A stretch of DNA of 57,210 bases from Candidatus Woesearchaeota archaeon (GCA_019322535.1 JAHWIM010000062.1:1-57210); one strand, 5' to 3'. Shown: positions 10,461-57,210, counted from the stretch's first letter. Notes: generated by a model from the sequence alone, not told the origin. Numbers and translations: made by a program.

Positions 10461-10472
10461 ATAAATCCCTCC

Positions 10473-11063: not shown

Positions 11064-11156
11064 CCCCCCAAATTAAATAATAAGGAAAAAAAACATCTAT
11101 TTGCTATTTAAATATTATTATACTAAAGTTGCATTATTTATATATTACAACTGTCT

Positions 11157-12440: not shown

Positions 12441-12606
12441 GTAATGCACCCCCAAGTTTATTCCCAAAGTAGAAAAACATCAATGATTTATTAATTTAAT
12501 TGTTCTGTTTTGTATATATTTTTTTACTAGTTTTGTATACGATAAATGGACATAATATTTATATATGAGTTATTGCTAATTTTGTTTAGGAAAGGGGGTT
12601 TTTTTA

Positions 12607-21445: not shown

Positions 21446-21452
21446 GGTTAAA

Positions 21453-22286: not shown

Positions 22287-22290
22287 TATC

Positions 22291-22905: not shown

Positions 22906-22935
22906 AAGGGATTTTAATATAGGGGGAGGATATTT

Positions 22936-26837: not shown

Positions 26838-27327
26838 AAAAAGAGGTAAACCTGTATTTAAGGATTTTTTAAGAGCTGAAAGTATAGACGAATTAGTCAG
26901 TTCTGAAGAAAGAGATTTATTTAGAACGCAAAGATTTCTTGGCAGACAAATGATTATGCATGAGATAGAACAGCTGCAAAAACAACAAAAAAAACCTGTT
27001 AAGAGAGGTAAACCTAACTATTCTTTACAAGGGCGAAAAGGAATTAACTATAAACCACTTAAATATAAGCCTATTATTTATATTCCTTTGAAAGCAAGAA
27101 ATATGTTTCGCACTAGTTATAGAAGAAGATTCAAAAAAGGTAAAATACGCAGAGGTGTGTACAGGGTTGCTGGGCTTGGACGTCGTAAGATGAGGAGAGA
27201 AAGAATCAACAGAGGTAGTAAGAAAGGATATCTTGAAGGCATTGTACAAAGAGATTCAAAAATTTTACCTATGCCTTACCAACCAGGAAGAGGATATGCA
27301 GGATACACAAATACAAAAGCTGCCTAA
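26824..27327 (+). CDS. Highly basic (K/R-rich) hypothetical protein
   Basis: 167-aa ORF overlapping the glyA end by 14 nt. It has R/K runs ([28 protein letters not shown]) and no hydrophobic segment. Confidence 0.45.
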
Positions 27328-28133
27328 GATTTTTCTAGATTTTTTATTACAAGAAGCAATGTTATTCTTCCCCAATTTATTAAGAGAATGAAGACTGCAA
27401 TTAAGAAAAGCAATAAGAGAAAGTTTGCTTCTAGTTGAGTTGAGATTGTATACAAAGCTAGAACAGGTAATCCTGTTGTGAGTATTAAAGCTGAGATTAA
27501 GATTTTTGCTTTTTTAATGCCTGTAAATAATGATTGTTTTATGATTTTTGGTATTTGTTTTAGTTCTTTTATTTTATGTATATAAGCAAATGAAATATAC
27601 ATGAAATACAAGAAGATTAAAGATATTATGAGATATACTGGAATTGCTATTTGTATTTGGTCAATGCTGAAGATGTATTTTGATGCAAAATTAATGATTG
27701 CAATTAATGGAATAATGAATATAAGGAATAAAATTCCAAACTTTAACTGATATTTTAAGAAAAGTGATTTTTGATTTAGAATAAAATTTGAGAGATTCCA
27801 GTTTATTCCATTTATTACAATGTATAGGGCAAACATTGTGACAACAAACAAGGTTACGTTTTTAAGTATTGATTTATAATGTGAATATTTTTCCATCATT
27901 GGGCCTAAAGAAGCTAATATCTCTTCATCTGACTCTGCTTCTGCTGAAATGTTTTCCATTGGTGCTAAGAATGCATTAATATCTTCTCCCATTGATATAG
28001 CAAAGTCCATAAATACAGCTGAAGATATGACTATTAAAATTGATTGCATTACAAATAAGACTAAGAAAATAAATTTATGTTTTTTTATTAATTTAATTGA
28101 CTGTTTTAAAGAAGTTTTTAGAGTGTTTAGCAT
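27324..28133 (-). CDS. Polytopic membrane protein E2 (paralog of 35279..36043), last gene of the surface operon
   Basis: 269 aa with a basic N-terminus, TM1, a ~45-aa acidic loop and several further hydrophobic helices. Its layout and several local motifs match E1. Confidence 0.75.
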   Translation of the reverse strand: MLNTLKTSLKQSIKLIKKHKFIFLVLFVMQSILIVISSAVFMDFAISMGEDINAFLAPMENISAEAESDEEILASLGPMMEKYSHYKSILKNVTLFVVTMFALYIVINGINWNLSNFILNQKSLFLKYQLKFGILFLIFIIPLIAIINFASKYIFSIDQIQIAIPVYLIISLIFLYFMYISFAYIHKIKELKQIPKIIKQSLFTGIKKAKILISALILTTGLPVLALYTISTQLEANFLLLLFLIAVFILLINWGRITLLLVIKNLEKS

Positions 28134-33306: not shown

Positions 33307-35211
33307 TTATGTTATTATTTCTGGTTCTGGTATACTATATTGTTGAGTAAGCTGGTCTAGTTTTGTAATTACTTCAATTGCTTGTTCTGGAGACCTTTCT
33401 GGGTCTATATATGGTCTTTCTAAAACATGGAATCTTATTTCTTTTGCATATTTTAGTTTTTCCCAGTCAGCAGTCCAATTGCCTTGATAACCTCCTCTTA
33501 TTGTTACATCGTCTGATAAATATATTGTAATATTATAATTGTAATTCCATTTTGCTAACAGTTTAAGTGTGCTTGGACTTTCTGCATCTGAATAATATGA
33601 TGCATCGCTTTCAAAATCTCCTCTTTTGATAGTTATTAAGGCACTATTTTCTTCATCTAGCTCTAATGGCTCTGCTGGAGAGAATTCATAATGCTTGACA
33701 ACAGTAACAGGTATTTCAATAACTGGAGTTAAATAGAGATCAACTGATTTTTCTGTATTTGTTGTTACAAACATTTCTCTTGACTCATATCCTGGTTTTT
33801 CTCCTCTTAAAACTCCATTTGCACATTGAGGAACTTGTTCTGAAACATATGAGACAGCTCCTCTGAACTGCCATTCTGACTGTCCGATAGGACATTTCAT
33901 TCTTATACATGTAAATGAAATATTTACTCCATCTATTTCTGTTGTTAAATCTCCTGCTTCTTGTGTTGATACATTTTCAAAAGTGTGAACAGTTAATCTG
34001 TTTGTTTCTGTTTCTCTGCAGTATTCTTCTTCTTTTGCAGTTGTTTCAAATGAAAATATTGCTGATGCAAAATTAGATTTATCAGGAGCATTGTGGTTTA
34101 TTGAAACATCAAATCCAATGTTAAATACATAATCATCATGTTTTCTAGTTGCATCATCTTTTAATGTTACAAGAACAGGGTATCTTACATCGTAAGTAAA
34201 GTGCCACAGTTGTACGCATAAGACATTTAAGAAATCCTGACCTCTATTTGCATTTGATTTTAAAGTTCTGCCTTCATTTGGTCTTATATATAATTCAAAA
34301 GGCCATGATTCATCATAGCTAAAGGATACATGTGTGTCTGCATATTTTTCTTCTGTTATTGGCCAGACATAATGATTTTGTTCATATGGATATTTTTTTG
34401 GAATTGGCTCATATTTTGTCCTATCAACTGCAATTCTTGGAAGGTTTATGTATAACAAATGTTTTAGTTTATTTTCTACATCTTTTATTTGCCATGTTTT
34501 TGACCTGCAGCTAAATGCCATATCTGTATAAGGGATATCATTATCCATCGCTATCAGGTCTATTGTTCTTCTTTCTATGAACTTTGTTCTTATTTCTTCT
34601 CTTATGATCTGAGTTGCAAGCTCATACATTTTTTTGATCCTGTATGGGATTTTAACTGAGAAGTCTTCTAAAAAGAATTTCTGCTCTCTTGCTTTTAGGA
34701 TTACATCTAAAGGATAATTTACATCTACTCTGAAATCTTCTTCTCCTAAATCTATATCAACTGAGATGTCTCCAAGTTCTGTTATGTTGAATGTTTTGTT
34801 GAAAGGCTCAAATCCTTGCAGGCAGATAGGAAGATTATCATGCACATATGTTTCTAATTCCAATATTACATAATTTAAAGGAGGTATTCTTGTTTGCCCT
34901 CTGTAGAACCATAAAACTGTTTTAACTGGAGATATAGGAAATGGCGGAAGATAAGCATTTGCTTCTGTTTCTATTTCATCTGGTATATCAATAAAACCAC
35001 CATTTGCTCCTAATATGTTTGCTCCATCTCTTGATATTGTTTCAACACAGTCTAGGATGAATTGATTTACTGGAACAATTTCTGGTGGAACAAGTACTGT
35101 TGGCTTGAAAACAGAAACTTCTTGCCTTAGAAAGAAGAATAAAGCTGCTGAAAGCAATAGAATTATTCCTAGAATGATGAATACAGTTATTTGTCCTCTT
35201 TTTTTAAACAT
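33307..35211 (-). CDS. Large protein A2 (634 aa) with a class III (type IV pilin-like) signal peptide; paralog of A1
   Basis: N-terminus MFKKRGQITVFIILGIILLLSAALFFF. Shared blocks with A1 include CVETISRDGANILGANGGFIDIP, VNYPLDVIL and YDVRYPVLVTLKD. The C-terminus looks like a beta-sandwich. Confidence 0.88.
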   Translation of the reverse strand: MFKKRGQITVFIILGIILLLSAALFFFLRQEVSVFKPTVLVPPEIVPVNQFILDCVETISRDGANILGANGGFIDIPDEIETEANAYLPPFPISPVKTVLWFYRGQTRIPPLNYVILELETYVHDNLPICLQGFEPFNKTFNITELGDISVDIDLGEEDFRVDVNYPLDVILKAREQKFFLEDFSVKIPYRIKKMYELATQIIREEIRTKFIERRTIDLIAMDNDIPYTDMAFSCRSKTWQIKDVENKLKHLLYINLPRIAVDRTKYEPIPKKYPYEQNHYVWPITEEKYADTHVSFSYDESWPFELYIRPNEGRTLKSNANRGQDFLNVLCVQLWHFTYDVRYPVLVTLKDDATRKHDDYVFNIGFDVSINHNAPDKSNFASAIFSFETTAKEEEYCRETETNRLTVHTFENVSTQEAGDLTTEIDGVNISFTCIRMKCPIGQSEWQFRGAVSYVSEQVPQCANGVLRGEKPGYESREMFVTTNTEKSVDLYLTPVIEIPVTVVKHYEFSPAEPLELDEENSALITIKRGDFESDASYYSDAESPSTLKLLAKWNYNYNITIYLSDDVTIRGGYQGNWTADWEKLKYAKEIRFHVLERPYIDPERSPEQAIEVITKLDQLTQQYSIPEPEIIT

Positions 35212-35278: not shown

Positions 35279-36043
35279 TTAAGATTTTATTTTGTTTACT
35301 TCTTGAACAAAGTAGTTTCTTGCCCAAGCCATGAATATTACAAAAATGATTAGTGATACAAACGGTGCAAAAAATAATGGGATGGGAATTAATGTTAGAG
35401 TTGTGAATATTATTTGGAATGGGATATATATTAAAAGACATGGAATTAAAAGTTTAAGTATATTTTTTGTTCCAAAGGTTAAGGTTTTTCCTATTGATTC
35501 AAACACTTTGTTATGTTTTGTAAAGAATATGTAATTAATAGATAAGTAATAAGCTACTGCCAGGAGAAAAATATAAAATATGTGTCTGAAAGCAACTAAT
35601 TCTTTTAGAACACTTCCTACTGTCATGAGAAATGTTAATATTATTATTATAACTATAGATAAGAATAGATTTAGCAAGAAGAATTTTTTAAAATATTGTT
35701 TTGTGAATTTCTTTTTGAGAATAGTGCAGTATATTAAGCCTTTGCTTAGAGACCAGATTGCTATCATTACAATAAATACTAATATAACTGAGATTCCTAT
35801 TGAGATAACTAGATCTTGAAGCTGTGCTGTTATTGGCTGAAGCTGTTCTTGTGTCATTGAAAGCAAATCACCTTCTGGCATGTTTATTACAGCCATTTTT
35901 TTTTCTAAGAATGAACCTACTCCTTTTAATGTTAAGATAGCTACTGCAAAGAATAGCAAGTCAAATAACATAATGTAAATCCAAGTAATCTTTGGCTTGA
36001 AAGAGTCTTTGAAATCTTTTAATTTTTTCATTTTAGATGTCAT
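35279..36043 (-). CDS. Polytopic membrane protein E1 (paralog of 27324..28133)
   Basis: 254 aa with the same TM/loop layout as E2. The start is either the ATG at 36043 (11-nt overlap with gene D) or the ATG at 36031. Confidence 0.75.
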   Translation of the reverse strand: MTSKMKKLKDFKDSFKPKITWIYIMLFDLLFFAVAILTLKGVGSFLEKKMAVINMPEGDLLSMTQEQLQPITAQLQDLVISIGISVILVFIVMIAIWSLSKGLIYCTILKKKFTKQYFKKFFLLNLFLSIVIIIILTFLMTVGSVLKELVAFRHIFYIFLLAVAYYLSINYIFFTKHNKVFESIGKTLTFGTKNILKLLIPCLLIYIPFQIIFTTLTLIPIPLFFAPFVSLIIFVIFMAWARNYFVQEVNKIKS

Positions 36044-39000
36044 TTATTGTGATATCGTCGTCTTCGTCTCCTGTTCCTCCACCACCTGATGATCCACTAC
36101 TTAGATAATTATCATAGCTATCATCTGCTTCTACTATGCTGTTGCAAAGTTCATTTTTTGGTTTTCTTGCCCCACTTCTCCATGCCATTCCTACTTGTAG
36201 TCCGTGTTTAAACCTTATGCATGCTTGTAAGTATTCCTTTGTACTGTATTGCACTATAGCATTTGCTCCTGATCCATAAAAGGCTTCTCCGTCGCCAGAG
36301 GCATATCCTTCTAGCTCTATATTCTCGCTGTAAATTTCTTGGTCTTTATAGTCGTCGCTTGTTAAATATACATTGAACTCGTTATCCTCATAAGTTGCTT
36401 TTGCGAAAAATGTTATTTTATAGAAATATTCTATTGATCCATTTGGAAGAGTTATTGCTGAGCTTCTTTCTCCTTCAATATGTGCTAATTCTACTATCTG
36501 TCCCTCTGGAGTCACATAATAAAGTGACTCATCGCCAACATCGTTTTCAAAATCATGGTGACATATTAAACTTGCCCAGTAATCTGTTCCTCCAAATACT
36601 ACATTATCAAAGAGTTGATCTGCAGCATGTTTCCATGCATCAGTTTCTTCTTCACCAAACAAGTGAGGTGAATAATAACTTAAACCTTGGAATTCTGTCA
36701 AATATTTCTCCATTGTTGCAAAATTAACTGCTCTGATTTCTGATCTTGCTCTTGATTCTACTTCATCTAATATTTCTTCTGGTTCATCAGCTCGACCTGA
36801 TGCAGCACTTATTATATCATTTATCTTACCTGTTTTTACAATATCTGCCTCACCAGAGTCCATAATTTGTTGAATTTGATTTCTTTCATCTGCTGTTAGT
36901 GTTGGTTCATATTCATTTGCCCTTATTACTGCTCTGTCATATTCTGACAGTTTTGCCCACGCTTCTGCTTGTGCTTTTTCATCGCCAGGAAACTCAGCTT
37001 CAAGAGCTGCACCATAAGTATAATCTGGTCGACCTGGCATTTCTCCCATTTCCCCTTGAAGCTTTTCTAATATTTCATCTCTATTTTTAATTCTACCTTC
37101 ACTATCGAGTTGAATTATACCTTCTGGATTATCTTCAGATTTTAAAAGATCAGATACTCTAGGATCTATAAAAGCATATGAATTAATTCTTCCATCTTTA
37201 TAATTACTTACAAACGCATATTTTTGACCTGTTACTGGATCAATTGCCCAGTCTTTAAATGTGGCATCTTTCCATCCAACGCCTTCACGTGCACTGGGCC
37301 TTAATTGGCTGTCTGTTGTATCCAGAAGCTCAGTTTTTACAATTATGCCTTTTGCTTTAAGTGTTTTTGAATATTCTTCTATAATTTCTGATGATAACCA
37401 ATGTGTTTCGCCATCTTTACCAATATACCAGTGAACATATTCACGGTTTTGTCCTCCTACTGAGATTACAGCGCCTTTTGCGTCTTGTCCACGGGTTACA
37501 ACTCTTCCAAATGTTGGTTCTCCTTCTGGGTCTAGTGGATTTGTTATAAGGTTTGTAGCAACTACTTCATAATTAATCTTATTTTTTTCGTCATCATATT
37601 CACGTACACCAATTATAGGTTTACCATCTACAGTAACTGCATCAAAGGTTTGATCTCCTACTTTTATAGATGTTGTTCCTTCATCAATATCTTCTGCTTT
37701 ATGACGAGCAAGCTCTGCTTTAATATCTCTTAAAGCCTCAGCAGTTACATCTTTTATTATTTCCCTTTCTTCTAGCTTTCCTTCTTCATCTTTGGTTAGG
37801 ATAGATACAGATGTTTTTGAAACTTCTTTGGCTCGTTTTCCTGCTTTTGTTTCTGTTGTTTCCTTAAAAATCATTGAACCTGTTGTTGTTGTTTTGACTA
37901 TGTTTCCTGTTATTAGTGTTTGAGTGGCTGAATCATATAATTTTCCATCTTTATCTGCATAGACAGCAATACCATCATATTGCAAGTCTTTTTGTAATGT
38001 AAACGTTCCTTTTTCTGTTGTAAGTGTCTCAAGTGGTTTTCTTTCTGTTACTGTAGTGCCATCACGACTAAGAGTTACTACATAATTATTCTTATCAAAA
38101 AATTTACCGTTCTTAAATGTTAATTGATCATCTTCATGGTCTTTGTTATAAAATTCTAGCATTTTCCCTTGTGCTCCACCGACTGCTTCTGTAGTTGTTT
38201 TTGGATCAGTTGTTTGTGCCCATTTTTTAGTATCTTTATTATATGCATATGTTGGACCTGTTTCTTGTCCTTTTTTTACATAAAGTCCCTCTCCTTTGTA
38301 CACATATCCGTCTGTTTCTGCAACAGCTATGCCTTGTAATTGGGTTTTGATGTCTTCTAATATTTTTTTTCTTGTTGGATTTGTTTCAGCAGCAATATCT
38401 TCTCTAAGCTTATCAATATTTGTACCAGTGTCTTTAGAATATAATTGTACAACCTCATCCATTCGTTCAGGCTTAAGAAGCACTGCTTCTATTCCTTCAT
38501 CATAGTCATCTATTTTTTTAAGTCGAAAAGTATCAATTACACCAGCCTGTGCAGTCTGAGCTGACGCTAGACTTTGTTTAGCAGTGTTAACCTTTTCTTG
38601 TTCTGCTTTAATTTTGGCTTTCAAATCTTCAACTTTTTTTCTTCTATCTTCAACATCTTTTTCTGTGACGTCGGGTGTGTTTACTAATTTTTCTTCTGCT
38701 ATTAACATAGATTGTTCAAATTTAAGGTCTGCTTCAAGCGCTGCAATGTTTGTTTCTCCTTCTACTTTTTCTAAGTTTTCTTTTGCTGTCTGGACTGCTG
38801 TCTGAGCTTTTTGTATTACTTCTGCTTCTGGGTCTGTTAATTCTTTTGCTAATTCTTCTGATATTAATTTAGCTTTAACTAAGTTTTGTACTGTTTCTGT
38901 TGCTGCAGCTCTTGCTGCTGCTTCTTCTTCTGCTTTTTTTGCTGCTGCTGCCTCTTCTGCTTTTTTTGCTGCTGCTGCTGCTGCTTCTGCTTCTTGAACT

Positions 39001-40304
39001 TTTTGAGCTTCTTCTAATTTAATTTTTGCTTTTGCAATTGCTATGTCATCTTTTGTTTTTGCTGTTTCTAAATCCTTTAAATTTTTTTGTGCTGTAGCAA
39101 CATTTTTTTGAGTAGGTGTGTAATCTTTCCATTTATCTGGAGGAATCTCTAAAGCCATGGCTACTGCAGCTTCTTCTTTAGAAATATCTAATTCTATAAA
39201 CCCCATATGTGTTTTAATCTCATCAGTAGTGGTTTTTGATGTTATACCTCTAGCTAATAATTCTTTTGCTGTTGCACCATCAGGAACACCAAGTCCTTTC
39301 CACATTTCTATTGCTTGAGGTGTATATCCTTCCCATGGGTCTGCTGCTGGAGCTGCTTCGGCTGCTTTACGACGGGCAATTTCTATTTTAGCAGCTTTTA
39401 TTTGTTCGGCTGTTCCTTTTACAACTAGTTCCTCTAATTGTTCTTTAGACATTTTTTCAATTTCAGTTGTTGGGGTTGCTGTTGCTGTGCCTGGGCTTGT
39501 TCCTGTGCCTGGAGGTACTGTTGGTGTTGTTGTTGGTGCTGAAATAGCTTGTTCCACCCTCGCAGAATCTGTTTCTACCCATTTCCCACTTGCTATATCA
39601 TATACTGAATGTTTAGACAGATCTGTTCTTCTAGCAAACAATAATCCATCAGACCCTATTCTATATTCCCAACCTGTTCCAATCTCACCATACTCTGCTG
39701 CTTGGTCTGGTGGAATAGTGACCCAATCATTTTCTCCTCCTTTATTTTTAACTTCTACATACAACAGCGATTTTTGTGGATTTTGAATATTTCCTTCTCT
39801 ATAATAATCGCCTCCTTCCCATTGATTAAATATTTGATCCCTTGTATATTCCTTATCGACAACATTATATAGAATTATAGGACCTATAGTTGGACCTGCA
39901 TCTTCATATCTAATTTTATCTGTTCTTGTCTCTCTATCTGGCTGGATAACATATACATCAGAATCATATTCTATTGTTGATATTGGAAAATCTTTAATAT
40001 CATTCCAACCTTCTCCTCTTCGTACAGTTGGATCATTTGAACCATCTGCAAACACATAAGTTACTCCTGAAGAAGAACCTGGTTCATTTGGAACAAAAAC
40101 AAATACTGAATCTGTCCCTCCATCATCTGTTTGAAGAATAAGTGAATTCTTTAATTGTTCATCAGTAACTCCTAATACTTTAATATTTTCAAATGATTTA
40201 TCTAATTCAAGATCCTCTAAATCAGTCAAAGCACTAACACTGCTTAATAAAATAACAAATAGAATCATCCAAATTTTTACAAATTTTGTATTTCTTAAAT
40301 TCAT
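36033..40304 (-). CDS. Secreted fibrous protein D (1423 aa): globular ends, T/P linker, long Ala/Lys/Glu coiled-coil stalk, acidic tail
   Basis: Signal peptide ...LLSSVSALTD. PTTTPTVPPGTGTSPGTATATPTT linker. A stretch of roughly 250 aa with heptad-like A/K/E-rich sequence (AAAAAKKAEEAAAAKKAEEEAAARAAA). C-terminal SSGGGGTGDEDDDITINDI. Confidence 0.88.
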   Translation of the reverse strand: MNLRNTKFVKIWMILFVILLSSVSALTDLEDLELDKSFENIKVLGVTDEQLKNSLILQTDDGGTDSVFVFVPNEPGSSSGVTYVFADGSNDPTVRRGEGWNDIKDFPISTIEYDSDVYVIQPDRETRTDKIRYEDAGPTIGPIILYNVVDKEYTRDQIFNQWEGGDYYREGNIQNPQKSLLYVEVKNKGGENDWVTIPPDQAAEYGEIGTGWEYRIGSDGLLFARRTDLSKHSVYDIASGKWVETDSARVEQAISAPTTTPTVPPGTGTSPGTATATPTTEIEKMSKEQLEELVVKGTAEQIKAAKIEIARRKAAEAAPAADPWEGYTPQAIEMWKGLGVPDGATAKELLARGITSKTTTDEIKTHMGFIELDISKEEAAVAMALEIPPDKWKDYTPTQKNVATAQKNLKDLETAKTKDDIAIAKAKIKLEEAQKVQEAEAAAAAAKKAEEAAAAKKAEEEAAARAAATETVQNLVKAKLISEELAKELTDPEAEVIQKAQTAVQTAKENLEKVEGETNIAALEADLKFEQSMLIAEEKLVNTPDVTEKDVEDRRKKVEDLKAKIKAEQEKVNTAKQSLASAQTAQAGVIDTFRLKKIDDYDEGIEAVLLKPERMDEVVQLYSKDTGTNIDKLREDIAAETNPTRKKILEDIKTQLQGIAVAETDGYVYKGEGLYVKKGQETGPTYAYNKDTKKWAQTTDPKTTTEAVGGAQGKMLEFYNKDHEDDQLTFKNGKFFDKNNYVVTLSRDGTTVTERKPLETLTTEKGTFTLQKDLQYDGIAVYADKDGKLYDSATQTLITGNIVKTTTTGSMIFKETTETKAGKRAKEVSKTSVSILTKDEEGKLEEREIIKDVTAEALRDIKAELARHKAEDIDEGTTSIKVGDQTFDAVTVDGKPIIGVREYDDEKNKINYEVVATNLITNPLDPEGEPTFGRVVTRGQDAKGAVISVGGQNREYVHWYIGKDGETHWLSSEIIEEYSKTLKAKGIIVKTELLDTTDSQLRPSAREGVGWKDATFKDWAIDPVTGQKYAFVSNYKDGRINSYAFIDPRVSDLLKSEDNPEGIIQLDSEGRIKNRDEILEKLQGEMGEMPGRPDYTYGAALEAEFPGDEKAQAEAWAKLSEYDRAVIRANEYEPTLTADERNQIQQIMDSGEADIVKTGKINDIISAASGRADEPEEILDEVESRARSEIRAVNFATMEKYLTEFQGLSYYSPHLFGEEETDAWKHAADQLFDNVVFGGTDYWASLICHHDFENDVGDESLYYVTPEGQIVELAHIEGERSSAITLPNGSIEYFYKITFFAKATYEDNEFNVYLTSDDYKDQEIYSENIELEGYASGDGEAFYGSGANAIVQYSTKEYLQACIRFKHGLQVGMAWRSGARKPKNELCNSIVEADDSYDNYLSSGSSGGGGTGDEDDDITINDI
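38905..38990 (-). repeat. Short imperfect tandem duplication (GCT-rich) encoding the AAAAKKAEE repeats of protein D
   Basis: tcttctgctttttttgctgctgctgc occurs twice back to back on the plus strand. Confidence 0.7.
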
Positions 40305-40305
40305 T

Positions 40306-40926
40306 TTATATTTCCAAATTAAATTCTATTTCTTTTGTATCTGTGTTGGTTAGATTAAATTGATCAATAACAGTTATTCTGTAAATGTAATCTCCTGGTT
40401 TTGATAATGCAGCTGTATTAACTCCACTTTCTACTGGTATTGTGTAAAGGTCTGAAGTTGTTACTGTTTTTGTTGTTGAAAAGCTGTTTACCTCAGTTAG
40501 TCCAGGCACCAATAATCCATCTGGATCAAATAATTGGTGAACTTCTCTAATCCTAATCCGAAGTTCACCAGCTACATCCTTAGGTGTTATATCTTTAATT
40601 TCATGATAAATTATAATATTCTCTCCTTTAGTATAAGTTGAATCTATTTTCTCAACATAATTATAATCTTCATCAACTGATGAAGCTAAAAGTAAGTCAG
40701 TTATTAATATTGGATATTTTTCTGAAATTTCAGCAGGTCCTCTAAACATAAAATAAGCTAATAAACCAATCACCAAAACTCCAACAATAACTGCAGCAAA
40801 TATAGCTACTTTCTTCATATCAAATGTTGATGTTGGTTTAAAGACAGGTGTTGGTTTTTCTTCTACAGGTTTTTCTACTTTTTCTTCAACTGGTTTTCCT
40901 GCTCCTGATTCTGGTTTTATTTGCAT
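40306..40926 (-). CDS. Single-pass membrane protein C2 with a ~130-aa ecto beta-domain (tandem paralog of C1)
   Basis: 206 aa with one TM (VAIFAAVIVGVLVIGLLAYFMF). The C-terminal block VHQLFDPDGLLVPGLTEVNSFSTTKTVT...GVNTAAL...YRITVIDQF matches C1. Confidence 0.85.
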   Translation of the reverse strand: MQIKPESGAGKPVEEKVEKPVEEKPTPVFKPTSTFDMKKVAIFAAVIVGVLVIGLLAYFMFRGPAEISEKYPILITDLLLASSVDEDYNYVEKIDSTYTKGENIIIYHEIKDITPKDVAGELRIRIREVHQLFDPDGLLVPGLTEVNSFSTTKTVTTSDLYTIPVESGVNTAALSKPGDYIYRITVIDQFNLTNTDTKEIEFNLEI

Positions 40927-40927
40927 T

Positions 40928-41608
40928 TTATTTTACAGTAAATTTAATTTCTCCCACATACTTGTTTGATGGTCTAAATTGATCAGTAACTGTTATCCTA
41001 TAAGTATAGGTTCCATGTTTTCTTAATGCAGCTGTATTGACTCCGCATTCTATTGGTATTGTGAAAACGTCTTGACCTGTTACTGTTCTTGTTGTTGAAA
41101 AGCTGTTTACTTTAGTGACTCCTGGTACTAATTTTCCATCTGGTTCAAATAGTTCATGGACTTCATCACAACCAATTTTATATTCTCCATTCATAACAAT
41201 TGGTATCATATCAACTACTACATGATGTAATGTAACAATTTCTCCTTTTTTGTAAACTGAACTTTTTCTTTCTCTGCATTTATTATAATCATCACTTACA
41301 TAACTTGCTAATACTAAATCCTTAATAGCAATTGTTTTATCTGGTTTTTCAGGAGGATCTTCAACTCTTTGTTCTAACCTTCTATAATGTGCTATATCTA
41401 ACAAAACTAATTCATCCATTGCTCTTTTTTTATTTTTTTCAGAAACAACTAACCTTTTTTCTAAATCTCCTTTTTCTTCAGATAATATTGCTGCTCTCTG
41501 AATCTGAGGCCTAACAACACCAAAATAATACCCTAAAAAAGATGTAACTGCAACAGCTGCAACTGTACAAGCTCCAATTACAAGGTATTTTATTTTTGTG
41601 CTTATCAT
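40928..41608 (-). CDS. Single-pass membrane protein C1 (tandem paralog of C2)
   Basis: 226 aa with an N-terminal TM. VHELFEPDGKLVPGVTKVNSFSTTRTVT...GVNTAAL...YRITVTDQF. Confidence 0.85.
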   Translation of the reverse strand: MISTKIKYLVIGACTVAAVAVTSFLGYYFGVVRPQIQRAAILSEEKGDLEKRLVVSEKNKKRAMDELVLLDIAHYRRLEQRVEDPPEKPDKTIAIKDLVLASYVSDDYNKCRERKSSVYKKGEIVTLHHVVVDMIPIVMNGEYKIGCDEVHELFEPDGKLVPGVTKVNSFSTTRTVTGQDVFTIPIECGVNTAALRKHGTYTYRITVTDQFRPSNKYVGEIKFTVK

Positions 41609-44600
41609 TCTTCTTCTACAGCAAGGGCTGTTTCCGCTTTTTTAGTGAAAAGTCCTTCGTCTTCTATTTTGAAGCAAGGATCGCTTGTTAATTCCCATGC
41701 ATCTTCTGCTGTTAATGCTTCTATATTAGCCATTATATCTCCTATTGCTGATAAAACTTTGATGAACATACAGAATTTATGTCCTCCAGGGAGTTCATGC
41801 CAGCATAGACTATAACATCCATAAGCAAGGCCCATTCCTATTAAAGCAAGTGGATCACTTAGTGCAGCCCGCCATAAACTAAGGACATAATTCCAAAATG
41901 CAAACAATGGAATAATATTAAATATAGCTCCCCAAAAATATTTGCACACCCTATAATCTTTTATTTCAGTGCATAGATTAGATGAAAATCCTGATTTGTA
42001 AGCATTAAATAAACAAGAGATATATTCACAATGTATTGCTCTATATTTATGTAAATTATAGACTATACCTGGAAGACAAAGTGTTGCCAGGCTTAATAAA
42101 AAATTATCTTTAACATTCATATAGCCCCCTGAAGTGCTTACTGCTCTGCTGTAATCTTCTGTTCCTTGGAATCCACCTAAAGCTGATTTTCCAAGATATG
42201 TAGGAGCATTTCTGTTTATCCAAGCAGCTCCACCACCTCCACCACCAGCAGCATTCCAATATTCTAAACCTTTTACTGTTTTTCCTTCTGGAAGTGGTGC
42301 GTGTTTGCAGTTAATAAATGCGCAATATTTGTCAGCATATTTACCAAATTTATCAGCAGCTGCTTTTGCTCCTTCTTCTGTAGTACAGGCTGTTCTTCTT
42401 CCTGCTTTAAGAGGTTCGCTTGCTTGAGGAACTGCTTTTGTTGCTAATTCTGCATCGCCAAAAATATTTTTAATCAGATCCCAAACCATTACTATTTGCC
42501 TGTAGGTGTAATACATCTTGCAAAGCATATCACTCCATTCAAAGATTCTTTGAAGCCAGCCAATTACTTGCCAGAAACCATTATCAATCCATTCATCATA
42601 CAGATCATCTATTTTATCTCTCTGGTTCTCAGTTACTTCTCCGATAGGAGCATCATACATACTAACAACAAGATCTATTGTCTCTTTCTCATAATTCATC
42701 AAAAATTTTTTTCTATAAGTAGAAAGCAAGTTGAAAGTGCAGTTTATAGTTAGATTTTCTAGTTTTGCTGCATCAAATGGTTTTAAATGAGTACCAATAA
42801 AGAATTCTTTACTTCCTCTTTCATTATTAAAGATAAAAAGATCATTTAAATAACCAATATCACCGCTGCAGTCTGCTAAGTCTACTGAAACTAATTGAGC
42901 ACCAGTTGATGTTCTTAATTTAAGATGGAAATACATCTGATGGTTGATTAAAGCTGTTGTGGATCTGTCAAGAGCTAATGGCATTGTACTAACTAAACTT
43001 CCTCTCCAATAATCTGGATTTTCTTCATAGCTTTTTGCAAAAACCTCAAACACCTGTTTAACTGTTTGATTATTTCCAGAAGAGTCAACAAAAGTAAAAG
43101 CAACATCTTCTCTTAGATAACCAGAACCAATAGGACCAACTGCCCATGTGCAGTTCCAATTTGTATTGTCTATTGTTGTGCAACTGCCTGGTGTTTCTTC
43201 ATAACCAAATGAACCCATTATTCTTGAGAAATCAGCAAATGCCTTAATTTCACTCTGGTCTTGAACTTGTACACTTACTACCATGTCATCTCCTGAAGAC
43301 AGTACTTTTGTTGGAATTTCTGTAATAGGTGTTATGTCTGCATAGTATTTTCTTCCTCGCGGCACTGTTTCATATCCTGTTACTGCAAGGATTTGCTCTT
43401 CTGAAAGTTCTTGCGCTTCTGGTGCTTTTCTGTCAATATATACTGAACCTTGTTTAACTCCTGTTGCTTCATTTCCAGCATCATCATACATTTTTATTAT
43501 GTAGAAATTCCCTCTTGTGCTGTGGGTTTTGCTGCTTTTAACATCATTCCATATACATTCCCAATTTGCACCAATTTTTTCACATCTATTTGCCTGGAAA
43601 TATTGGCCTGCATATGCCGCATCAACTTCTGACAAATCAATTAATGCTTGTCTTCCTTCCATGCCTGCTCCTGCATCTAAAATTGTTGCAACAATATCTT
43701 TTGGCATATCTCCAAGATAGCTTATAGCATTCCACGGATTTCTTGTTGCAACAGAAAGTATTTCTGGAGCTGTTGTGTCAACTGTAAATGATACAACAAC
43801 AGTTGCTTCTTGCACATTTCCAAAATCATCTCTTGCTGTGATTTTTATGTTATAGGTTCCTGTTGCCATTGCAAACTGCAGAGCTGGCCAAGTACAAGTA
43901 TATTCAACACCAGTTCTTGTACAAACAACAGCTGGAACAGATTCACCTTCTCCGAATTGTGAAAAGTCAGCAAAAATATTCTTAGCTTGAAGGCCTGTAT
44001 CTTCTAAGACTTTAATCTGGGCATTCACTGCAAAAGTACCTTCAGGAATATATTGCTGAAGCTGGACTCCTTGACTTATCATTTTAAATGAGTCTGTTTG
44101 TATTGCTGGAGGTGATACATCAAGTTCAAATCGAGGACTTGATCGTGAAGTAAGATGATCCATTTTATCATATGCTTTTATAATGAGATTTCCTGTGGTT
44201 GGAAGTGGAACAATTGTTGTAGTTGAATAGATACAGCCAGGAGCTGTGATATTTTGTTCATATAACATAACACTATTATCCCAGAATTCAACCCTTCTTA
44301 AACCAGAGCAGACAGAAAAATCATCTTCTTTCCATGCTCTGTCTTTCAAAGTATATGCAACAGAAACTATTGATCCATTTTGCGCTGGAAGCCTGTCAAA
44401 TTCAATAACAGGAGCAAGATTATCTAAAGTCATATTAATATTTTCAGACTGCAATAAGGTATTATCGTCTGAAAACAAAGAAACTGTTGATGGATAAGTA
44501 CCTCCTGCTAAGCTATAATATGCTGATTCAAAATTGCATGTATAACTTCCTGGTGTTATTTCTGTACAGTCTTGCATAGGAAAATCATTAACTTTAATTT

Positions 44601-44811
44601 GGTCTGGTGTTATTTCTGAATCACCATCTACAGAAGCAAGTGTTTCTAATGACCAACTGTCATAGCTGTCAAAAAAACCATTAATTCCTGCGTCACCACT
44701 ATGCTTTGTAACTGTTAATTGTGTCTGGGCAAATGCATTTGAAATATAGAAAGGCAAAGTTAGGATTATAATAATCATAAACATGGATTTTGCGTATAAG
44801 CTTTTTTTCAT
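41605..44811 (-). CDS. Giant secreted protein B1 (1068 aa): Ig-like repeats plus a Cys-rich hydrophobic C-terminal region; distant paralog of B2
   Basis: Signal peptide ...YISNAFAQT. Repeated D-x-x-x-P domain boundaries (DNLAPV, DVSPPA, DTTAPE, DRKAPE). The C-terminal motif CLPGIVYNL...CTEIKDYRVCKYFWGAI parallels CVPQIRNRL...CKEVFTQYICKWIYRGI in B2. Confidence 0.9.
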   Translation of the reverse strand: MKKSLYAKSMFMIIIILTLPFYISNAFAQTQLTVTKHSGDAGINGFFDSYDSWSLETLASVDGDSEITPDQIKVNDFPMQDCTEITPGSYTCNFESAYYSLAGGTYPSTVSLFSDDNTLLQSENINMTLDNLAPVIEFDRLPAQNGSIVSVAYTLKDRAWKEDDFSVCSGLRRVEFWDNSVMLYEQNITAPGCIYSTTTIVPLPTTGNLIIKAYDKMDHLTSRSSPRFELDVSPPAIQTDSFKMISQGVQLQQYIPEGTFAVNAQIKVLEDTGLQAKNIFADFSQFGEGESVPAVVCTRTGVEYTCTWPALQFAMATGTYNIKITARDDFGNVQEATVVVSFTVDTTAPEILSVATRNPWNAISYLGDMPKDIVATILDAGAGMEGRQALIDLSEVDAAYAGQYFQANRCEKIGANWECIWNDVKSSKTHSTRGNFYIIKMYDDAGNEATGVKQGSVYIDRKAPEAQELSEEQILAVTGYETVPRGRKYYADITPITEIPTKVLSSGDDMVVSVQVQDQSEIKAFADFSRIMGSFGYEETPGSCTTIDNTNWNCTWAVGPIGSGYLREDVAFTFVDSSGNNQTVKQVFEVFAKSYEENPDYWRGSLVSTMPLALDRSTTALINHQMYFHLKLRTSTGAQLVSVDLADCSGDIGYLNDLFIFNNERGSKEFFIGTHLKPFDAAKLENLTINCTFNLLSTYRKKFLMNYEKETIDLVVSMYDAPIGEVTENQRDKIDDLYDEWIDNGFWQVIGWLQRIFEWSDMLCKMYYTYRQIVMVWDLIKNIFGDAELATKAVPQASEPLKAGRRTACTTEEGAKAAADKFGKYADKYCAFINCKHAPLPEGKTVKGLEYWNAAGGGGGGAAWINRNAPTYLGKSALGGFQGTEDYSRAVSTSGGYMNVKDNFLLSLATLCLPGIVYNLHKYRAIHCEYISCLFNAYKSGFSSNLCTEIKDYRVCKYFWGAIFNIIPLFAFWNYVLSLWRAALSDPLALIGMGLAYGCYSLCWHELPGGHKFCMFIKVLSAIGDIMANIEALTAEDAWELTSDPCFKIEDEGLFTKKAETALAVEEE

Positions 44812-46955
44812 TTTGCTGCTATATATCTTGGTTCTAATTTTGGTCTGAATTGAGATGAAAGTTTTTCTAATATATTTTGGTTAAAAATATGCTCTATTTT
44901 TTCAGGAAGAGGTGTGTCTACAATGAAGAATGTTAAATTATTATCTTTGTATAAATTATTAGGAGAGATTATCAGATATCCTGTTTGATTATTAAAAATT
45001 GCTCCTCCTTTAAAATAATCATCATCAAATTTTACTTCTGGAATTGTATATTCTTCTTCAAAAGGCCATGAACCTTCTTCTCTTTTATCTTCTGGTATTA
45101 TAACAGGTTGATGATAGAACATGCTCATCTCTACTTCATATGTTCCTGGAACTAGTCTTAAACTAGATGTTGTATTTGTTACTTTTGCTATAGCTGTGAA
45201 TGGATCTTCTCCAACAAAATCATTTTGTCTTGATAATGACAAGACAACTTCCTCATCTGCACCAAGAGGAACAGCTTGTGTTGTAGGTTTTCCACCATCT
45301 TGCACTTTCTCTGTAGATAAAGAAGAAGTTAGATATTTCAAAACTCTAACCTCTTTGTCAATATAAGGATATACTCTTACTGTTGGAAATTCAATTGTAT
45401 CATTAAAGTCTACTGATAAATATAAAGTAGGCATATAGTAGTCAATATGATCTAAAACTAATAAACCACCAAAACAGAGAGGAAATCTTGAAATTAATGT
45501 TCCATTTTCATCAGTAGCTCCTATCTGGCAGCCTTGATCACCGCACTGAAATCCTACAGAAACTCCTTGTATTGGCTCATCTGTGGATTCATCAACTACT
45601 TTGATTGTTACATTTCCACTATTTCTTTGATTTTCATTGCATAAAAGAGATGATTGAAATTCTGGAACTGGCTCAAATCCCTGAAAGCTTTCATCTATAA
45701 ATTCATTATTTCTAAAGTTAGATTCTAGAGCAAATCTAAATGTATATCCTTCTTCTCTAAGAGCAGCTGGGTCTCTAATTTCAACAACAACAGGGTAGCT
45801 TAAGTCATAAACATTATTATACTTTGTTGAACCTAATGAAAATAATTCTGCAAGATCATTGAGCAAAGATTGTCCTTTTATTATTTCTCCTTTGCTATTT
45901 ATGTCAAAATATATCGGCCACCAAGCTAGATAATTGAATGTAACTGCTAGATCAGAATAAGGCTGTGAGTCTCTGCTTAAATTTATAGGAAGCTCAACTG
46001 ATTCATAAAGTGCTGCTTGTAGTGGATCTGGAAAATTTCTTTTTACAAAATTCAGAGTATCATAAACTTGAAAAGCAGGAACATATATCATTAATATTTC
46101 TTCAATTTTTTCTTTAACTTTTGTTCTTAACCATATGACACTTGGATCTGTGCCAAATTCTGTATGTGAGAATGGAGGCAGTCTGTTTGGATCAAGACCT
46201 GAATAAGCATCTATTAAATCAAGAGCTTGTTTTTCAAAAACTTTGTATTCTATCTGAATGTTTGTTATACCTGTTGCTAAATCATAAATTCTTCTCATAT
46301 TTACAGGAATAGAACCATAAAAATTATCTACTCTGTGAGTTTTGTCTGCTAATTCAACTTTGAGTGGATAATTTAAGAACAAAGCAACATTAGATGATGT
46401 TACTCTTGTTATAGATTTAAATTCACCAGTAGGTGTTATTTCATAGCCTTGTACTTTAAATGCATTATAGTTGTTTAAACAAGAACCTATTTCTTCTTCA
46501 ATATATCTGTCAACTTGAGCTTCGATTGAACGATCACCTGGGGTAATTCTGTATAAAGGAGGTCTTAAGGAACTAAACAAACAATTTCCTCTGCAGTCAT
46601 TTGGTGCTTTTAAATACCACCAATATGGAACATAAAGTCCTGAGTTTGGTGCAAATTCTAAAGCGTCTGCTTCTGTTGGATTTTGAGATGAAACAGAGAT
46701 TCCAAAATCTTCAAAATAAATATAACCTCCTCCTTCTCCTAATAGTTTAAGTCCTTCTGTGCCAACTTTTTCAAGACATTCTTGCGTAAATTGTCTTATT
46801 GGCTCAAATTCAATAGGAATACTTACAACAGCAGGAATTTCTTCTATTATTGCTCTCTTAACAACCCTTGATCTTATGAAAAAAAAGGTAAATACTGCAA
46901 ATAAAATTATTACTCCTAAGATTATGAAAAGCGTTATTTGTCCCCTTTTTTTCAA
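44808..46955 (-). CDS. Large protein A1 (715 aa) with a class III (type IV pilin-like) signal peptide; first gene of the operon
   Basis: TTG start at 46955 with a GAGGGG SD 7 nt upstream. N-terminus (M)KKRGQITLFIILGVIILFAVFTFFF. Paralogous blocks shared with A2. A CarboxypepD_reg-like segment (VTIKVVDESTDEPIQGVSV...TDENGTL). Confidence 0.88.
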   Translation of the reverse strand: MKKRGQITLFIILGVIILFAVFTFFFIRSRVVKRAIIEEIPAVVSIPIEFEPIRQFTQECLEKVGTEGLKLLGEGGGYIYFEDFGISVSSQNPTEADALEFAPNSGLYVPYWWYLKAPNDCRGNCLFSSLRPPLYRITPGDRSIEAQVDRYIEEEIGSCLNNYNAFKVQGYEITPTGEFKSITRVTSSNVALFLNYPLKVELADKTHRVDNFYGSIPVNMRRIYDLATGITNIQIEYKVFEKQALDLIDAYSGLDPNRLPPFSHTEFGTDPSVIWLRTKVKEKIEEILMIYVPAFQVYDTLNFVKRNFPDPLQAALYESVELPINLSRDSQPYSDLAVTFNYLAWWPIYFDINSKGEIIKGQSLLNDLAELFSLGSTKYNNVYDLSYPVVVEIRDPAALREEGYTFRFALESNFRNNEFIDESFQGFEPVPEFQSSLLCNENQRNSGNVTIKVVDESTDEPIQGVSVGFQCGDQGCQIGATDENGTLISRFPLCFGGLLVLDHIDYYMPTLYLSVDFNDTIEFPTVRVYPYIDKEVRVLKYLTSSLSTEKVQDGGKPTTQAVPLGADEEVVLSLSRQNDFVGEDPFTAIAKVTNTTSSLRLVPGTYEVEMSMFYHQPVIIPEDKREEGSWPFEEEYTIPEVKFDDDYFKGGAIFNNQTGYLIISPNNLYKDNNLTFFIVDTPLPEKIEHIFNQNILEKLSSQFRPKLEPRYIAAK

Positions 46956-47025
46956 TATATTCCCCTCGACACTGTATTATCCTAATTTATAAACCCAATA
47001 TATAAAAAGCTTTTGGTAAGACGCC

Positions 47026-47047
47026 CTCTAAACTGGAATTTTTAGAG
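47026..47047. promoter_or_regulatory. Inverted repeat CTCTAAA-n8-TTTAGAG in the divergent control region of the operon
   Basis: Perfect 7-bp arms located between the minus-strand TATA-like boxes (about 46989-47007) and the plus-strand TATA box at 47098. Confidence 0.3.
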
Positions 47048-47097
47048 TTTCAGGGCTTTAAGGCCTATTTTCATTTCTTGAAAATGATAGGAAAACC

Positions 47098-47105
47098 TTT
47101 TAAAC
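47098..47105 (+). promoter_or_regulatory. TATA box (TTTTAAAC) for 47128..48255
   Basis: 23 nt from 47105 to the ATG at 47128. Confidence 0.45.
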
Positions 47106-47127
47106 TTAAAGTTTTTATGAAGCAGTA

Positions 47128-48255
47128 ATGGTAGACCAAAGACTAATTGATTATGTAAAAAAAGAGCTTGCTGCTGGATACAAGGCAGAAGCTATAAGAA
47201 CTTATTTGATAAATTACGGCTATAATGCTGCAGATGTTGATGCAGCAATAAGAGCTACTGCAGCAAAACCAGCTGTTGTTCCTGCTGCTGGTGCAAGAAA
47301 GATTCCAATATTACCTATAGTTGGAGGAATTCTTGGTGTTTTATTTATTGTTATGATTGTTATGATTTTTTTTACTGGAAAAAAAGAAGTAGAAGTTGTA
47401 AGTGTTGTTACTGATAAAATTGATTTAAAAGTTTCTATGCTAAGCAGCAACATAAGACAAGCAGAAAGTGTACAATTTAATATTATATTAAACAGTTTAG
47501 ATGGACAAGACCATGATGTTGGCTTGGTGTATGAGGTTGTGGATAGCGTAGGTTCTCCAATAAGCCAAAGAGAAGATTTTATTGCTGTAACAAATAGAAT
47601 ATATGAACAAAAAACAATTGACCTTCCTTCTAATATTGAACCTGGAAGCTATAGTATAGTTGCAACAGGGAGATTTGATAGTGAAGAAGTTAAAAGCAGT
47701 GTAAGGTTTGCTGTTTTATCAGCTGGAGCAGAAGCAAGAGAGGTTGTTGAGTTTGCTGAAGTAGAATGTCCTGTTTGTGAAGATAATGATCCTTGCACAG
47801 ATGAACAATGCTCATCTGCAACTAATTATGAATGCGTTCATTTTCCAATAAGCCCTTGCTGCGGAAATTTAAAATGTGAAAGTTATGAAGCTTATGAAAA
47901 CTGTCCAACAGATTGTTCTCCTTCATTGCCTGCTGGAGCTGCAATAGTACTTACTTTAACTGAAATAACACAAACTGCTAGAAATTATGCTACTACAGAT
48001 TTAAGCGGCGCAGACAGTTACTGCAAAGGTCTGCCAGATGTAAATCAGAGAGACAGTTGCTTTTATACAGTATCACAAACTGCAAAACAAAGCAGATTCT
48101 GCGACCCTATTTTTTCAGAACTTAAAAGAGATAATTGTTACAGCGATTATGCATTGGCAGGAGATTTTAGTATTTGTGACAAGCTTACAAATGTTTATAT
48201 GAAAGAGAGCTGCTATGAATTAGAAGATGCAAGCAAGAATCCTGGTTTAAGATAA
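47128..48255 (+). CDS. Single-pass membrane protein with a small cytoplasmic helical N-domain, an ecto Ig-like domain and a Cys-rich C-terminal region
   Basis: 375 aa: LIDYVKKELAAGYKAEAIRTYLINYGYNAADVDAAI, A/P linker, TM (ILPIVGGILGVLFIVMIVMIFF), a beta-rich segment, then CPVCEDNDPCTDEQC...CCGNLKCE...CPTDC and further Cys. Confidence 0.8.
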   Translation: MVDQRLIDYVKKELAAGYKAEAIRTYLINYGYNAADVDAAIRATAAKPAVVPAAGARKIPILPIVGGILGVLFIVMIVMIFFTGKKEVEVVSVVTDKIDLKVSMLSSNIRQAESVQFNIILNSLDGQDHDVGLVYEVVDSVGSPISQREDFIAVTNRIYEQKTIDLPSNIEPGSYSIVATGRFDSEEVKSSVRFAVLSAGAEAREVVEFAEVECPVCEDNDPCTDEQCSSATNYECVHFPISPCCGNLKCESYEAYENCPTDCSPSLPAGAAIVLTLTEITQTARNYATTDLSGADSYCKGLPDVNQRDSCFYTVSQTAKQSRFCDPIFSELKRDNCYSDYALAGDFSICDKLTNVYMKESCYELEDASKNPGLR

Positions 48256-56526: not shown

Positions 56527-57210
56527 ATGGTTAATCTTCAATATACTAATTTGAGTTATAAGCCAGGTAAAAAAGATTTGGTTTGTGAATTTTATTTAGA
56601 ACCAAATAAGATTTCTTTTGAAAGGGCTTGCGAGCATGTTGCTGCTGAAAGCAGCATAGGAACATGGACAGATATTGCAACTATGAACAAGCAGATTGCA
56701 AGAAGATTAAAACCACATATTTTTGATATGAACAAAACAAGAAATGTTGTAAGAATTGCTTATCCTTCTGAATTATTTGAAGCAGGGAATATGCCTCAGA
56801 TATTAAGCAGTATTGGTGGGAATATTTTTGGAATGAAAGCAGTAAAAAATCTAAGACTGCAGGATATTTCTTTTCCTAAATCTATTATTAAGAAGTTTAA
56901 AGGACCAAGATTTGGAATTAAAGGTGTTAGAAAATTATTGAAAGTTAAGAAAAGGCCTTTAGTTGGAACTATTGTAAAGCCAAAAGTTGGTTTAACTGCT
57001 GAACAGCATGCTAAAGTTGCTTATGAAGCATGGGTAGGGTGATTAGATTTAGTAAAATATGATGAAAATTTGAGCAATATGGCATTTAACAAATTTGAGA
57101 AAAGAGTACAATTAACTCTAAAAATGAGAGATTTGGCTGAAAGAAAAACAGGAGAAAGAAAGATGTACATGCCAAATACTACTGCTGAAACAGATGAAAT
57201 GATAAGAAGA
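56527..57210 (+). pseudogene. rbcL: RuBisCO form III-type large subunit, interrupted by an in-frame TGA at 57040..57042; the frame continues to the window edge
   Basis: AAESSIGTWT, GGNIFGMKAV and GTIVKPKVGL precede the stop. After the stop the same frame reads LDLVKYDENL...GERKMYMPNTTAE. The TGA falls where GG-x-D has its second Gly. Confidence 0.8.

Follow-up and report, generated by a model that had tools for sequence, protein, structure and literature searches.

The complete 57,210-bp contig analyzed here (hereafter the window; 32% GC) belongs to a metagenome-assembled genome (MAG) named 'Candidatus Woesearchaeota archaeon', a tiny archaeon of the symbiotic type, and it encodes two paralogous proteins, designated A1 and A2, that begin with a short basic leader and a hydrophobic helix in the form of an archaeal class III (prepilin-like) signal. 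Directly after each of the two genes lies one that encodes a giant secreted protein without a membrane anchor, B1 in the case of A1 and B2 in the case of A2. Judged from their sequences, A1 and A2 are members of a large, previously undescribed, DPANN-specific superfamily of cell-surface proteins, many of which are encoded in comparable two-gene cassettes. On balance, and with considerable reserve, we favor the view that the A proteins are class III-processed surface adaptors that would tether their cognate secreted giants to the cell.

A1 and A2 Share a Constrained Class III-like Leader

Both open reading frames (ORFs) were found where a preliminary description of the window had located them (Table 1), and the N-terminal sequences that it quoted, MKKRG/QITLFIILG... 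for A1 and MFKKRG/QITVFIILG... for A2 (the slash marks the predicted boundary), are exact. Over about 600 aligned amino acids (aa), A1 and A2 share 25% identity (BLASTP, E = 2e-35), whereas 18 of the first 28 aligned residues (64%) are identical, which has a binomial probability of 1.3e-5 given the 25% background. Because differing codons are used at 11 of these 18 identical residues, the constraint on the N terminus acts at the protein level. These data bear out the earlier proposal that the near-invariance of the leader, despite the divergence of the paralogs, reflects functional constraint. The uncharged hydrophobic stretch of the two proteins is 21-22 residues long (Kyte-Doolittle means of 3.1-3.2), starts at position +1 and would be kept in the mature protein; no further hydrophobic segment was detected in A1 or A2. 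A short basic n-region that ends in [KR]-[G/A/S] directly before the hydrophobic domain is thus present in both proteins, and a basic residue plus G/A/S at the edge of a membrane-length hydrophobic stretch is, as far as sequence can tell, the form of an archaeal class III signal.

To describe the boundary across the family, we used the 107 homolog clusters retrieved with A1, all of which are unannotated and without a Pfam domain, and whose named sources are Woesearchaeota or Nanoarchaeota. The 105 clusters with full N termini, aligned at the start of the hydrophobic stretch, yielded the consensus [KR]-[G/A/S]-Q-[IV]-[TS]-x-F-I-I-x-G. K or R occupies position -2 in all 105 clusters, and position -1 is G (68), A (18) or S (18) in 104 of them. 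Gln is found at +1 in 99/105 clusters and is followed by I/V/L at +2, T/S at +3 (97/105), Phe at +5 (98/105) and Gly at +9 (94/105). The length of the n-region is free, from 2 to 30 residues, and several homologs contain an initial MKKRG, then an insertion, and then K[KR][GAS]Q again directly at the helix.

When all six frames of the window were screened for an uncharged hydrophobic stretch preceded by [KR][GA] near an ORF start, A1, A2 and a 110-aa ORF on the minus strand (5117..5449) were recovered. The latter starts with MLFKNKKG/EVASIILLVVVLIALVGYG, a class III-like boundary composed of KKG and a hydrophobic stretch, and continues with a Cys-rich segment and a second transmembrane helix; it has no Pfam match. 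A third, distant A-type paralog of 877 aa (P0104; KY331_01945), with the leader ...TSKKS/QITLFMILG, is encoded on a different, 45-kb contig of the same MAG.

The Leader Marks a Very Large Family of DPANN Proteins

The range of the motif was examined in GTDB representative genomes with a degenerate DNA pattern for [KR][KR][GA]Q[IV][TS]xFIIxG, which matched at least 120 loci in these genomes and had zero matches in viral contigs. Among the 80 record titles listed, 79 were archaeal MAGs (Woesearchaeota, Nanoarchaeota/Nanoarchaeia, Nanobdellota, unclassified 'archaeon' and 'uncultured Methanosarcinales archaeon') and one was a Bacteroidetes MAG, a lineage restriction that is partly circular because the pattern was derived from the A family itself. 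Many of the genomes entitled 'uncultured Methanosarcinales archaeon' (those of loci L007, L010, L012, L022, L027 and others) hold a Woesearchaeota-type A cassette, and their titles are probably taxonomic mislabels of DPANN MAGs.

When the N terminus was removed, 105 of 122 motif-bearing ORFs were still assigned to the A family by BLASTP. Nine complete 'mini-A' proteins of 253-339 aa escaped this search; their relationship with the A family was revealed by hhalign (probability of 99.8%, E = 2.6e-28) over a region that spans A1 residues 1-245. A 42-residue N-terminal profile was then run with HMMER against 1.84 billion representative proteins and gave 4286 matches at E ≤ 0.001, each of them at the extreme N terminus of the protein. 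The best 150 of the 4286 matches included 146 new proteins; 120 of these (67-1081 aa) also matched hidden Markov models (HMMs) of the downstream domain, and the remaining 26 were fragments of 112 aa or less. The leader combined with the core domain thus characterizes a single, very large family. A word-indexed search with the same profile returned 10 short fragments only and was uninformative. Members of the superfamily range from 250 to 1200 aa and have in common the leader helix and an alpha/beta domain, to which A1 and A2 add other domains, C-terminal beta-sandwiches among them; no description of the family was found in Pfam, NCBIfam or the searchable literature.

Most A Genes Are Followed by Genes for Secreted Giant Proteins

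Nine genes, from 46955 down to 27324, constitute a tightly packed minus-strand array (Table 1). A1 and B1 come first, two small transmembrane proteins, X and a multi-pass protein stand next, and A2, B2 and another multi-pass protein complete it. The start of B1 overlaps the stop of A1 by 4 nucleotides (nt), and B2 begins 1 nt after the stop of A2. The only hydrophobic segments of B1, B2 and X are their Sec-type signals. The whole array is kept in two relatives, at loci L002 (only 41% identity) and L005 (about 25% identity), and in part at L001. Orthologs of B1 follow the A1 orthologs at these three loci, the A2 orthologs occupy the same cluster position in L002 and L005, and the L005 ortholog of B2 follows that of A2.

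Beyond the window, pairing was counted for the motif-bearing genes of the at least 120 loci, 85 of which had enough downstream sequence. In 71 of these 85 A genes, the next same-strand ORF encodes a protein of at least 400 aa (or a truncated one) with a Sec-like N terminus, and the junction is most often an ATGA (4-nt) overlap. The partner family tracks the A subtype, such that A1-type genes are accompanied by '...VTKYSGD...' proteins and A2-type genes by '...LEISNV...' proteins, and the partners of several mini-A genes are 'CCEKT..GAWCQ' proteins. The link between leader proteins and neighboring giants that had been suggested from the window alone is, therefore, a property of most evaluable members of the family.

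As to the giants themselves, A1, A2, B1, B2 and X were assigned to no family by Pfam, NCBIfam or PHROGs, with weak immunoglobulin (Ig)-like matches only, among them those of B1 in Pfam. Sequence searches against the PDB (a profile for A; phmmer for B1, B2 and X) gave nothing meaningful. B1 and B2 resemble each other only marginally, in a Cys motif (E = 0.04). The B2 ortholog at L005 (11977..18555) is a 2192-aa protein with a Trypsin_2 protease domain, which the B2 of the window lacks.

The A1 Model Contains a Novel Alpha/Beta Region and No Recognizable Pilin Fold

The AlphaFold2 model of A1, built from 81 sequences (predicted local distance difference test (pLDDT), 90.7), comprises a helix (residues 2-36), a low-confidence linker (residues 37-47), an alpha/beta region up to about residue 430, and beta-sandwiches up to the C terminus. 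When residues 40-432 were modeled alone, the pLDDT was 93.4 and the predicted template modeling score was 0.91, and Foldseek matched this model to nothing in PDB or BFVD at E ≤ 0.001. The full A1 model matched in PDB only CnaB, Gram-positive sortase-pilin and transthyretin-like sandwiches (E down to 1e-7); these matches are local, with all query-normalized TM-scores ≤ 0.15. The invariant columns of the A-family alignment include C60 and C159 of A1.

Type IV pilins were absent among the Foldseek matches of the A1 models. Rather than running continuously into a compact pilin head, the helix is succeeded by the low-confidence linker and then by a 390-residue alpha/beta region. Since Foldseek yields no pilin and the linker breaks the helix from the globular part, A1 is not a recognizable type IV pilin.

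A24 Peptidases Occur Widely in the Lineage

Forty proteins of the window were scanned with Pfam (39 of the 48 ORFs of at least 120 aa, plus the 110-aa ORF at 5117..5449). The scan identified purine biosynthesis enzymes, glycosyltransferases, MetRS and RuBisCO, and no A24 peptidase, T2SSE or T2SSF protein among those scanned, in agreement with the preliminary description, according to which the window lacks genes for a prepilin peptidase, a pilus ATPase and a platform protein. The multi-pass proteins of the array were considered as candidate peptidases and rejected, as they have neither a GxGD motif nor a Pfam match.

Among the loci that contain A genes, a motif screen detected one A24 peptidase (PF01478; score of 40 bits, cutoff of 26.5). 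It is encoded by a Nanoarchaeia MAG, and 740 bp separate its gene from a mini-A/600-aa cassette of that contig. With this protein as query, 186 A24 clusters were retrieved, the named sources of which are Woesearchaeota, Nanoarchaeota/Nanoarchaeia and unclassified archaeal MAGs, and none of the named matches lies within the accession block of the MAG studied here (MBW2977584-MBW2978208). A24 prepilin peptidases are, thus, common in the lineage. The A24 genes examined have housekeeping surroundings and are not located in pilus loci, and a PilB/FlaI-type Walker A motif was found in none of 544 ORFs of at least 200 aa from about 1 Mb of A-cassette loci.

Beside the A24 genes of three DPANN genomes (L126, 91..8624; L127, 603..8832; L128, 3740..5954), proteins of recurring sizes without Pfam matches were observed. 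The full set, present in L126 and L127, consists of lipoprotein-like proteins of about 306-313 and 307-308 aa and of proteins of 426-436 and 388-393 aa with a hydrophobic N terminus, and is accompanied by a large secreted protein; L128 has a 308/428-aa pair only.

Other Features of the Array and the Window

The features of the array are collected in Table 1. The paralogy of the 226- and 206-aa proteins is evident from their sequences, and L005 has genes for 206- and 150-aa proteins at that place. Counterparts of the 254-aa multi-pass protein have 250-265 and 238 aa in L002 and L005, and the 269-aa multi-pass protein, which has no significant similarity to the 254-aa one, has a 271-aa counterpart in L005. 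The two elements upstream of the A1 start, one of them Shine-Dalgarno-like (GAGGGG) and the other the TTTATATA box, were read from the sequence, and the intergenic region that contains them may function as a promoter. Divergent from A1, on the plus strand (47128..48255), lies a gene for a 375-aa, Cys-rich protein with one transmembrane helix and a weak Dicty_CTDC-like repeat; a counterpart occupies the same position in L002 (8745..9857), and the protein may belong to the surface cluster.

Table 1. Location of A1, A2 and associated features in the window
Feature	Coordinates	Strand	Remarks
A1	44808..46955	minus	715 aa, TTG start; NCBI KY331_05150, annotated hypothetical
A1 predicted class III leader, M1-G5 (MKKRG)	46941..46955	minus	Conserved boundary; putative cleavage G5/Q6
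A1 hydrophobic helix, Q6-I27 (QITLFIILGVIILFAVFTFFFI)	46875..46940	minus	Kyte-Doolittle mean of 3.15 over 19 residues
A1 core alpha/beta domain, residues ~48-245	46221..46814	minus	Common to mini-A; invariant C60, C159
A1 second alpha/beta region, residues ~246-432	45660..46220	minus	
A1 C-terminal beta-sandwich domains, residues ~445-715	44811..45623	minus	Foldseek
Intergenic region, A1 to divergent 375-aa gene	46956..47127		TTTATATA box and GAGGGG element
B1	41605..44811	minus	1068 aa, 25 Cys, Sec-type signal, no membrane anchor
Two tandem paralogous small proteins between B1 and X	40306..41608	minus	226 and 206 aa; N-terminal transmembrane segment and beta-rich domain each
X	36033..40304	minus	1423 aa, acidic, Sec signal; conserved C-terminal domain common to L002 and L005
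Multi-pass membrane protein just upstream of A2	35279..36043	minus	254 aa, no Pfam match
A2	33307..35211	minus	634 aa, ATG start; A1 paralog
A2 predicted leader, M1-G6 (MFKKRG), and hydrophobic helix, Q7-L28	35128..35211	minus	
B2	28140..33305	minus	1721 aa, 52 Cys, Sec-type signal, no membrane anchor
Multi-pass membrane protein after B2, last in array	27324..28133	minus	269 aa

Elsewhere in the window, the region 7579..27327 encodes a near-complete de novo purine pathway that comprises PurL, PurQ, PurN, PurM, FolD, SHMT, PurB, PurT, a second PurF-like gene, a PurF-PurD fusion (16358..19027), a split PurH (19578..20294 and 20291..21445) and a PurC-PurE fusion (22936..24447). Such a pathway is unusual in a DPANN lineage, which is regarded as metabolically reduced. 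At the junction between the purine operon and the surface array there is a gene for an extremely basic, K/R-rich protein of 167 aa (26824..27327, plus strand). A RuBisCO large-subunit gene (56527..57042, plus strand) is cut by the end of the contig, and it flanks the cluster in L002 too. Scans of the window for tRNA genes and Rfam families were empty.

Discussion

The known proteins to which the leader of A1 and A2 can best be compared are the Epd pilins of Methanococcus maripaludis (DUF361/PF04021), which likewise carry a short basic leader with K/R-G at its end and an essentially invariant Gln at +1, followed by I/V at +2 and S/T at +3. The FlaFind-predicted processing sites of these pilins are KGQI (the site listed for EpdE), KGQV, KGQL and RAQI (PMC4371748), of which KGQI and KGQV compare with RGQI in A1 and A2, and their peptidase EppA needs the Gln at +1 (PMC3875500). 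The A proteins differ from the Epd pilins in the residue at +5, in the lack of a PF04021 match, in their location outside pilus loci, and in size and architecture, since they have 250-1200 aa and a novel alpha/beta domain, compared with 60-200 aa for the pilins. A second likeness is with the PibD-processed proteins of the Sulfolobus bindosome (GlcS and AraS), large non-pilin proteins with a prepilin-type leader whose genes lie, like the A genes, beside functional partners and away from the assembly machinery (PMC4371748; bioRxiv 10.64898/2026.04.22.720090). Such large class III proteins (PMC4371748) provide a precedent for A1 and A2, the mature domains of which (600-700 aa) had at first been called unusual. 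Unlike the bindosome proteins, the A proteins have no similarity to substrate-binding proteins in Pfam or NCBIfam, and their neighbors are secreted giants and small membrane proteins instead of an adjoining ABC transporter. Membership of the A proteins in the pilin, bindosome or DUF361 families is not supported by the comparisons made here.

More distant parallels exist. In PilVWX-PilY1, CofB-CofJ and PilB/PilC of Streptococcus sanguinis, proteins with a pilin-type N terminus and bulky domains partner or present a large non-pilin adhesin, and in the Sulfolobales the adjacent SlaA and SlaB genes, one pair per genome, encode a very large Ig-rich outer protein and its membrane-bound stalk. A genes differ from the former in lying outside pilus operons and in encoding no canonical pilin head, and from the latter in the presence of several divergent A cassettes per genome and in the N-terminal class III-type anchor. 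By analogy, the logic of the A system may resemble that of the bindosome proteins and, loosely, those of the minor-pilin/PilY1-type complexes and of SlaB/SlaA. What appears to be new is a prepilin-type leader on a novel family of candidate adaptors that are encoded in two-gene cassettes with secreted giants.

Several observations weigh against the view that A1 and A2 are adaptors processed at a class III site. The 40-aa N termini matched neither Pfam PF04021 (Class_IIIsignal), even at E ≤ 10, nor the NCBIfam archaeal pilin/flagellin N-terminal models at the same threshold; a single homolog gave a weak match (E = 0.068), beginning at the Gln, to a TadE/G N-terminal model. Position +5 is Phe in the family (98/105), and not the Glu that is conserved in the EppA-processed pilins (PMC3875500). 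The proposed EppA-type (+1 Gln) signal is thus upheld by its form, its conservation and the Gln at +1, and fails on the Glu at +5 and on the curated models. An A24 peptidase was not found among the scanned proteins of the window, and none of the named A24 matches was traced to this MAG. In addition, 14 of the 85 evaluable A genes have no partner of the kind described above, and distant A homologs at loci L003 and L004 stand alone. Finally, the pattern and profile searches, as far as their matches were compared, found the leader motif on no unrelated proteins or pilins. Because it was seen in one superfamily only, its conservation could reflect family inheritance together with helix packing instead of recognition by a peptidase.

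The last point leads to the main rival explanation, namely that the helix is an uncleaved signal-anchor and that the A proteins are type II membrane proteins, in which the Q, T/S, F and G residues would serve for packing against helices of other membrane proteins, possibly the two multi-pass proteins conserved in the array, or for self-association. The limitation of the motif to one superfamily, the absence of a match to the class III profile models, and the flexible linker that AlphaFold2 places after the helix, as expected for a tethered ectodomain, are consistent with this idea, and so is the conservation of F at +5 and G at +9, deep into the helix, which is more than a peptidase site needs. 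However, the positive-inside rule explains the K/R residues but not the small residue at -1 or the Gln at +1, the boundary remains fixed despite the variable n-region and is re-created after insertions, and the mini-A cassettes keep the motif without an evident conserved multi-pass neighbor. We regard an uncleaved anchor as unlikely, though as an alternative to be taken seriously. The leader might also be a plain Sec signal peptide whose removal by signal peptidase I would yield a soluble secreted protein, and a positively charged n-region before a hydrophobic stretch is compatible with this. Nevertheless, the 21-22-residue stretch runs straight into R-S-R or R-Q-E and lacks a c-region of small residues, and the classic AxA-type sites are found in B1, B2 and X of the same array, which makes this explanation scarcely credible.

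Two further explanations ascribe a structural role to the A proteins. According to the preliminary description, they could be minor or tip subunits that present the neighboring giants. After cleavage, they would be assembled into a type IV filament by a PilB/PilC-type machine encoded elsewhere and would carry B1 and B2 at its tip, in the manner of minor pilins with PilY1 or of CofB with CofJ. A class III-like leader with Gln at +1, an N-terminal helix that is conserved more than any other region, a trait of type IV pilins too, and a large secreted partner beside each gene would all fit such a filament. Many archaeal pilins are encoded away from their machinery, and Epd-like filament loci (TFF system 1) have been reported in DPANN (bioRxiv 10.64898/2026.04.22.720090). 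On the other hand, the lack of a pilin among the Foldseek matches, the linker between the helix and the globular part, the lack of an ATPase Walker A motif in the window and in about 1 Mb of cassette loci, and the existence of several different cassettes per genome and of thousands of divergent family members weigh against a pilin or tip-subunit role, which we consider improbable. The A and B proteins could also form a two-component surface layer (S-layer) or envelope, with A as a membrane-bound stalk and B as an outer canopy, like SlaB and SlaA of the Sulfolobales; the genes for the anchor and the giant are adjacent and translationally coupled, the B proteins have Ig-like domains and N-glycosylation sequons, and the array occupies a conserved chromosomal position beside housekeeping genes. 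Nonetheless, an S-layer normally needs one partner family rather than the several unrelated ones found per genome, SlaB, in contrast to A, combines a Sec signal with a C-terminal helix anchor, and the searches detected no resemblance in sequence to known S-layer proteins, which leaves this arrangement very improbable indeed.

In the model that we favor, that of adaptors processed at the class III site, the N-terminal helix would insert the A protein into the membrane, and an A24 prepilin peptidase would remove MKKRG from A1 or MFKKRG from A2 to leave Gln as the mature end. The conserved helix would then serve as membrane anchor of the processed protein, or hold it within an assembly that resembles a bindosome or a pseudopilus, and the extracellular core domain would bind the cognate giant, B1 in the case of A1 and B2 in that of A2. 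The giant, translated from the downstream overlapping gene and exported by the Sec system without an anchor of its own, would thereby be exposed on the cell surface, where its role would probably be adhesion or contact with a host. A giant secreted protein is, in this scheme, probably held at the surface by the A member encoded upstream of it. Genomes with a peptidase but without filament loci have been reported to encode many class III binding proteins (bioRxiv 10.64898/2026.04.22.720090).

To our knowledge, little is known about host recognition and attachment in DPANN archaea, whose surface proteins mostly lack annotation. The results presented here place two proteins so far called 'hypothetical' in a defined family of very wide occurrence, with 4286 representative matches at E ≤ 0.001. 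For this family, two predictions can be put to the test, namely that an A24 peptidase cleaves before Gln during maturation and that an adaptor is partnered with the giant encoded directly downstream. Even if the helix were uncleaved, the A family would still be a new conserved membrane anchor-partner module. As a more tentative extension of the adaptor model, about which we are rather doubtful, the thousands of adaptor-giant cassettes might constitute a DPANN-specific system of surface display without a dedicated pilus machine, and thereby a variable repertoire for host recognition and adhesion in Woesearchaeota and related ultra-small archaea. If the adaptor model is true, the use of prepilin-type leaders would not be limited to pilins and bindosome proteins but would extend to surface tethering in general, and the A family would offer a starting point from which the giant proteins in these genomes could be annotated.

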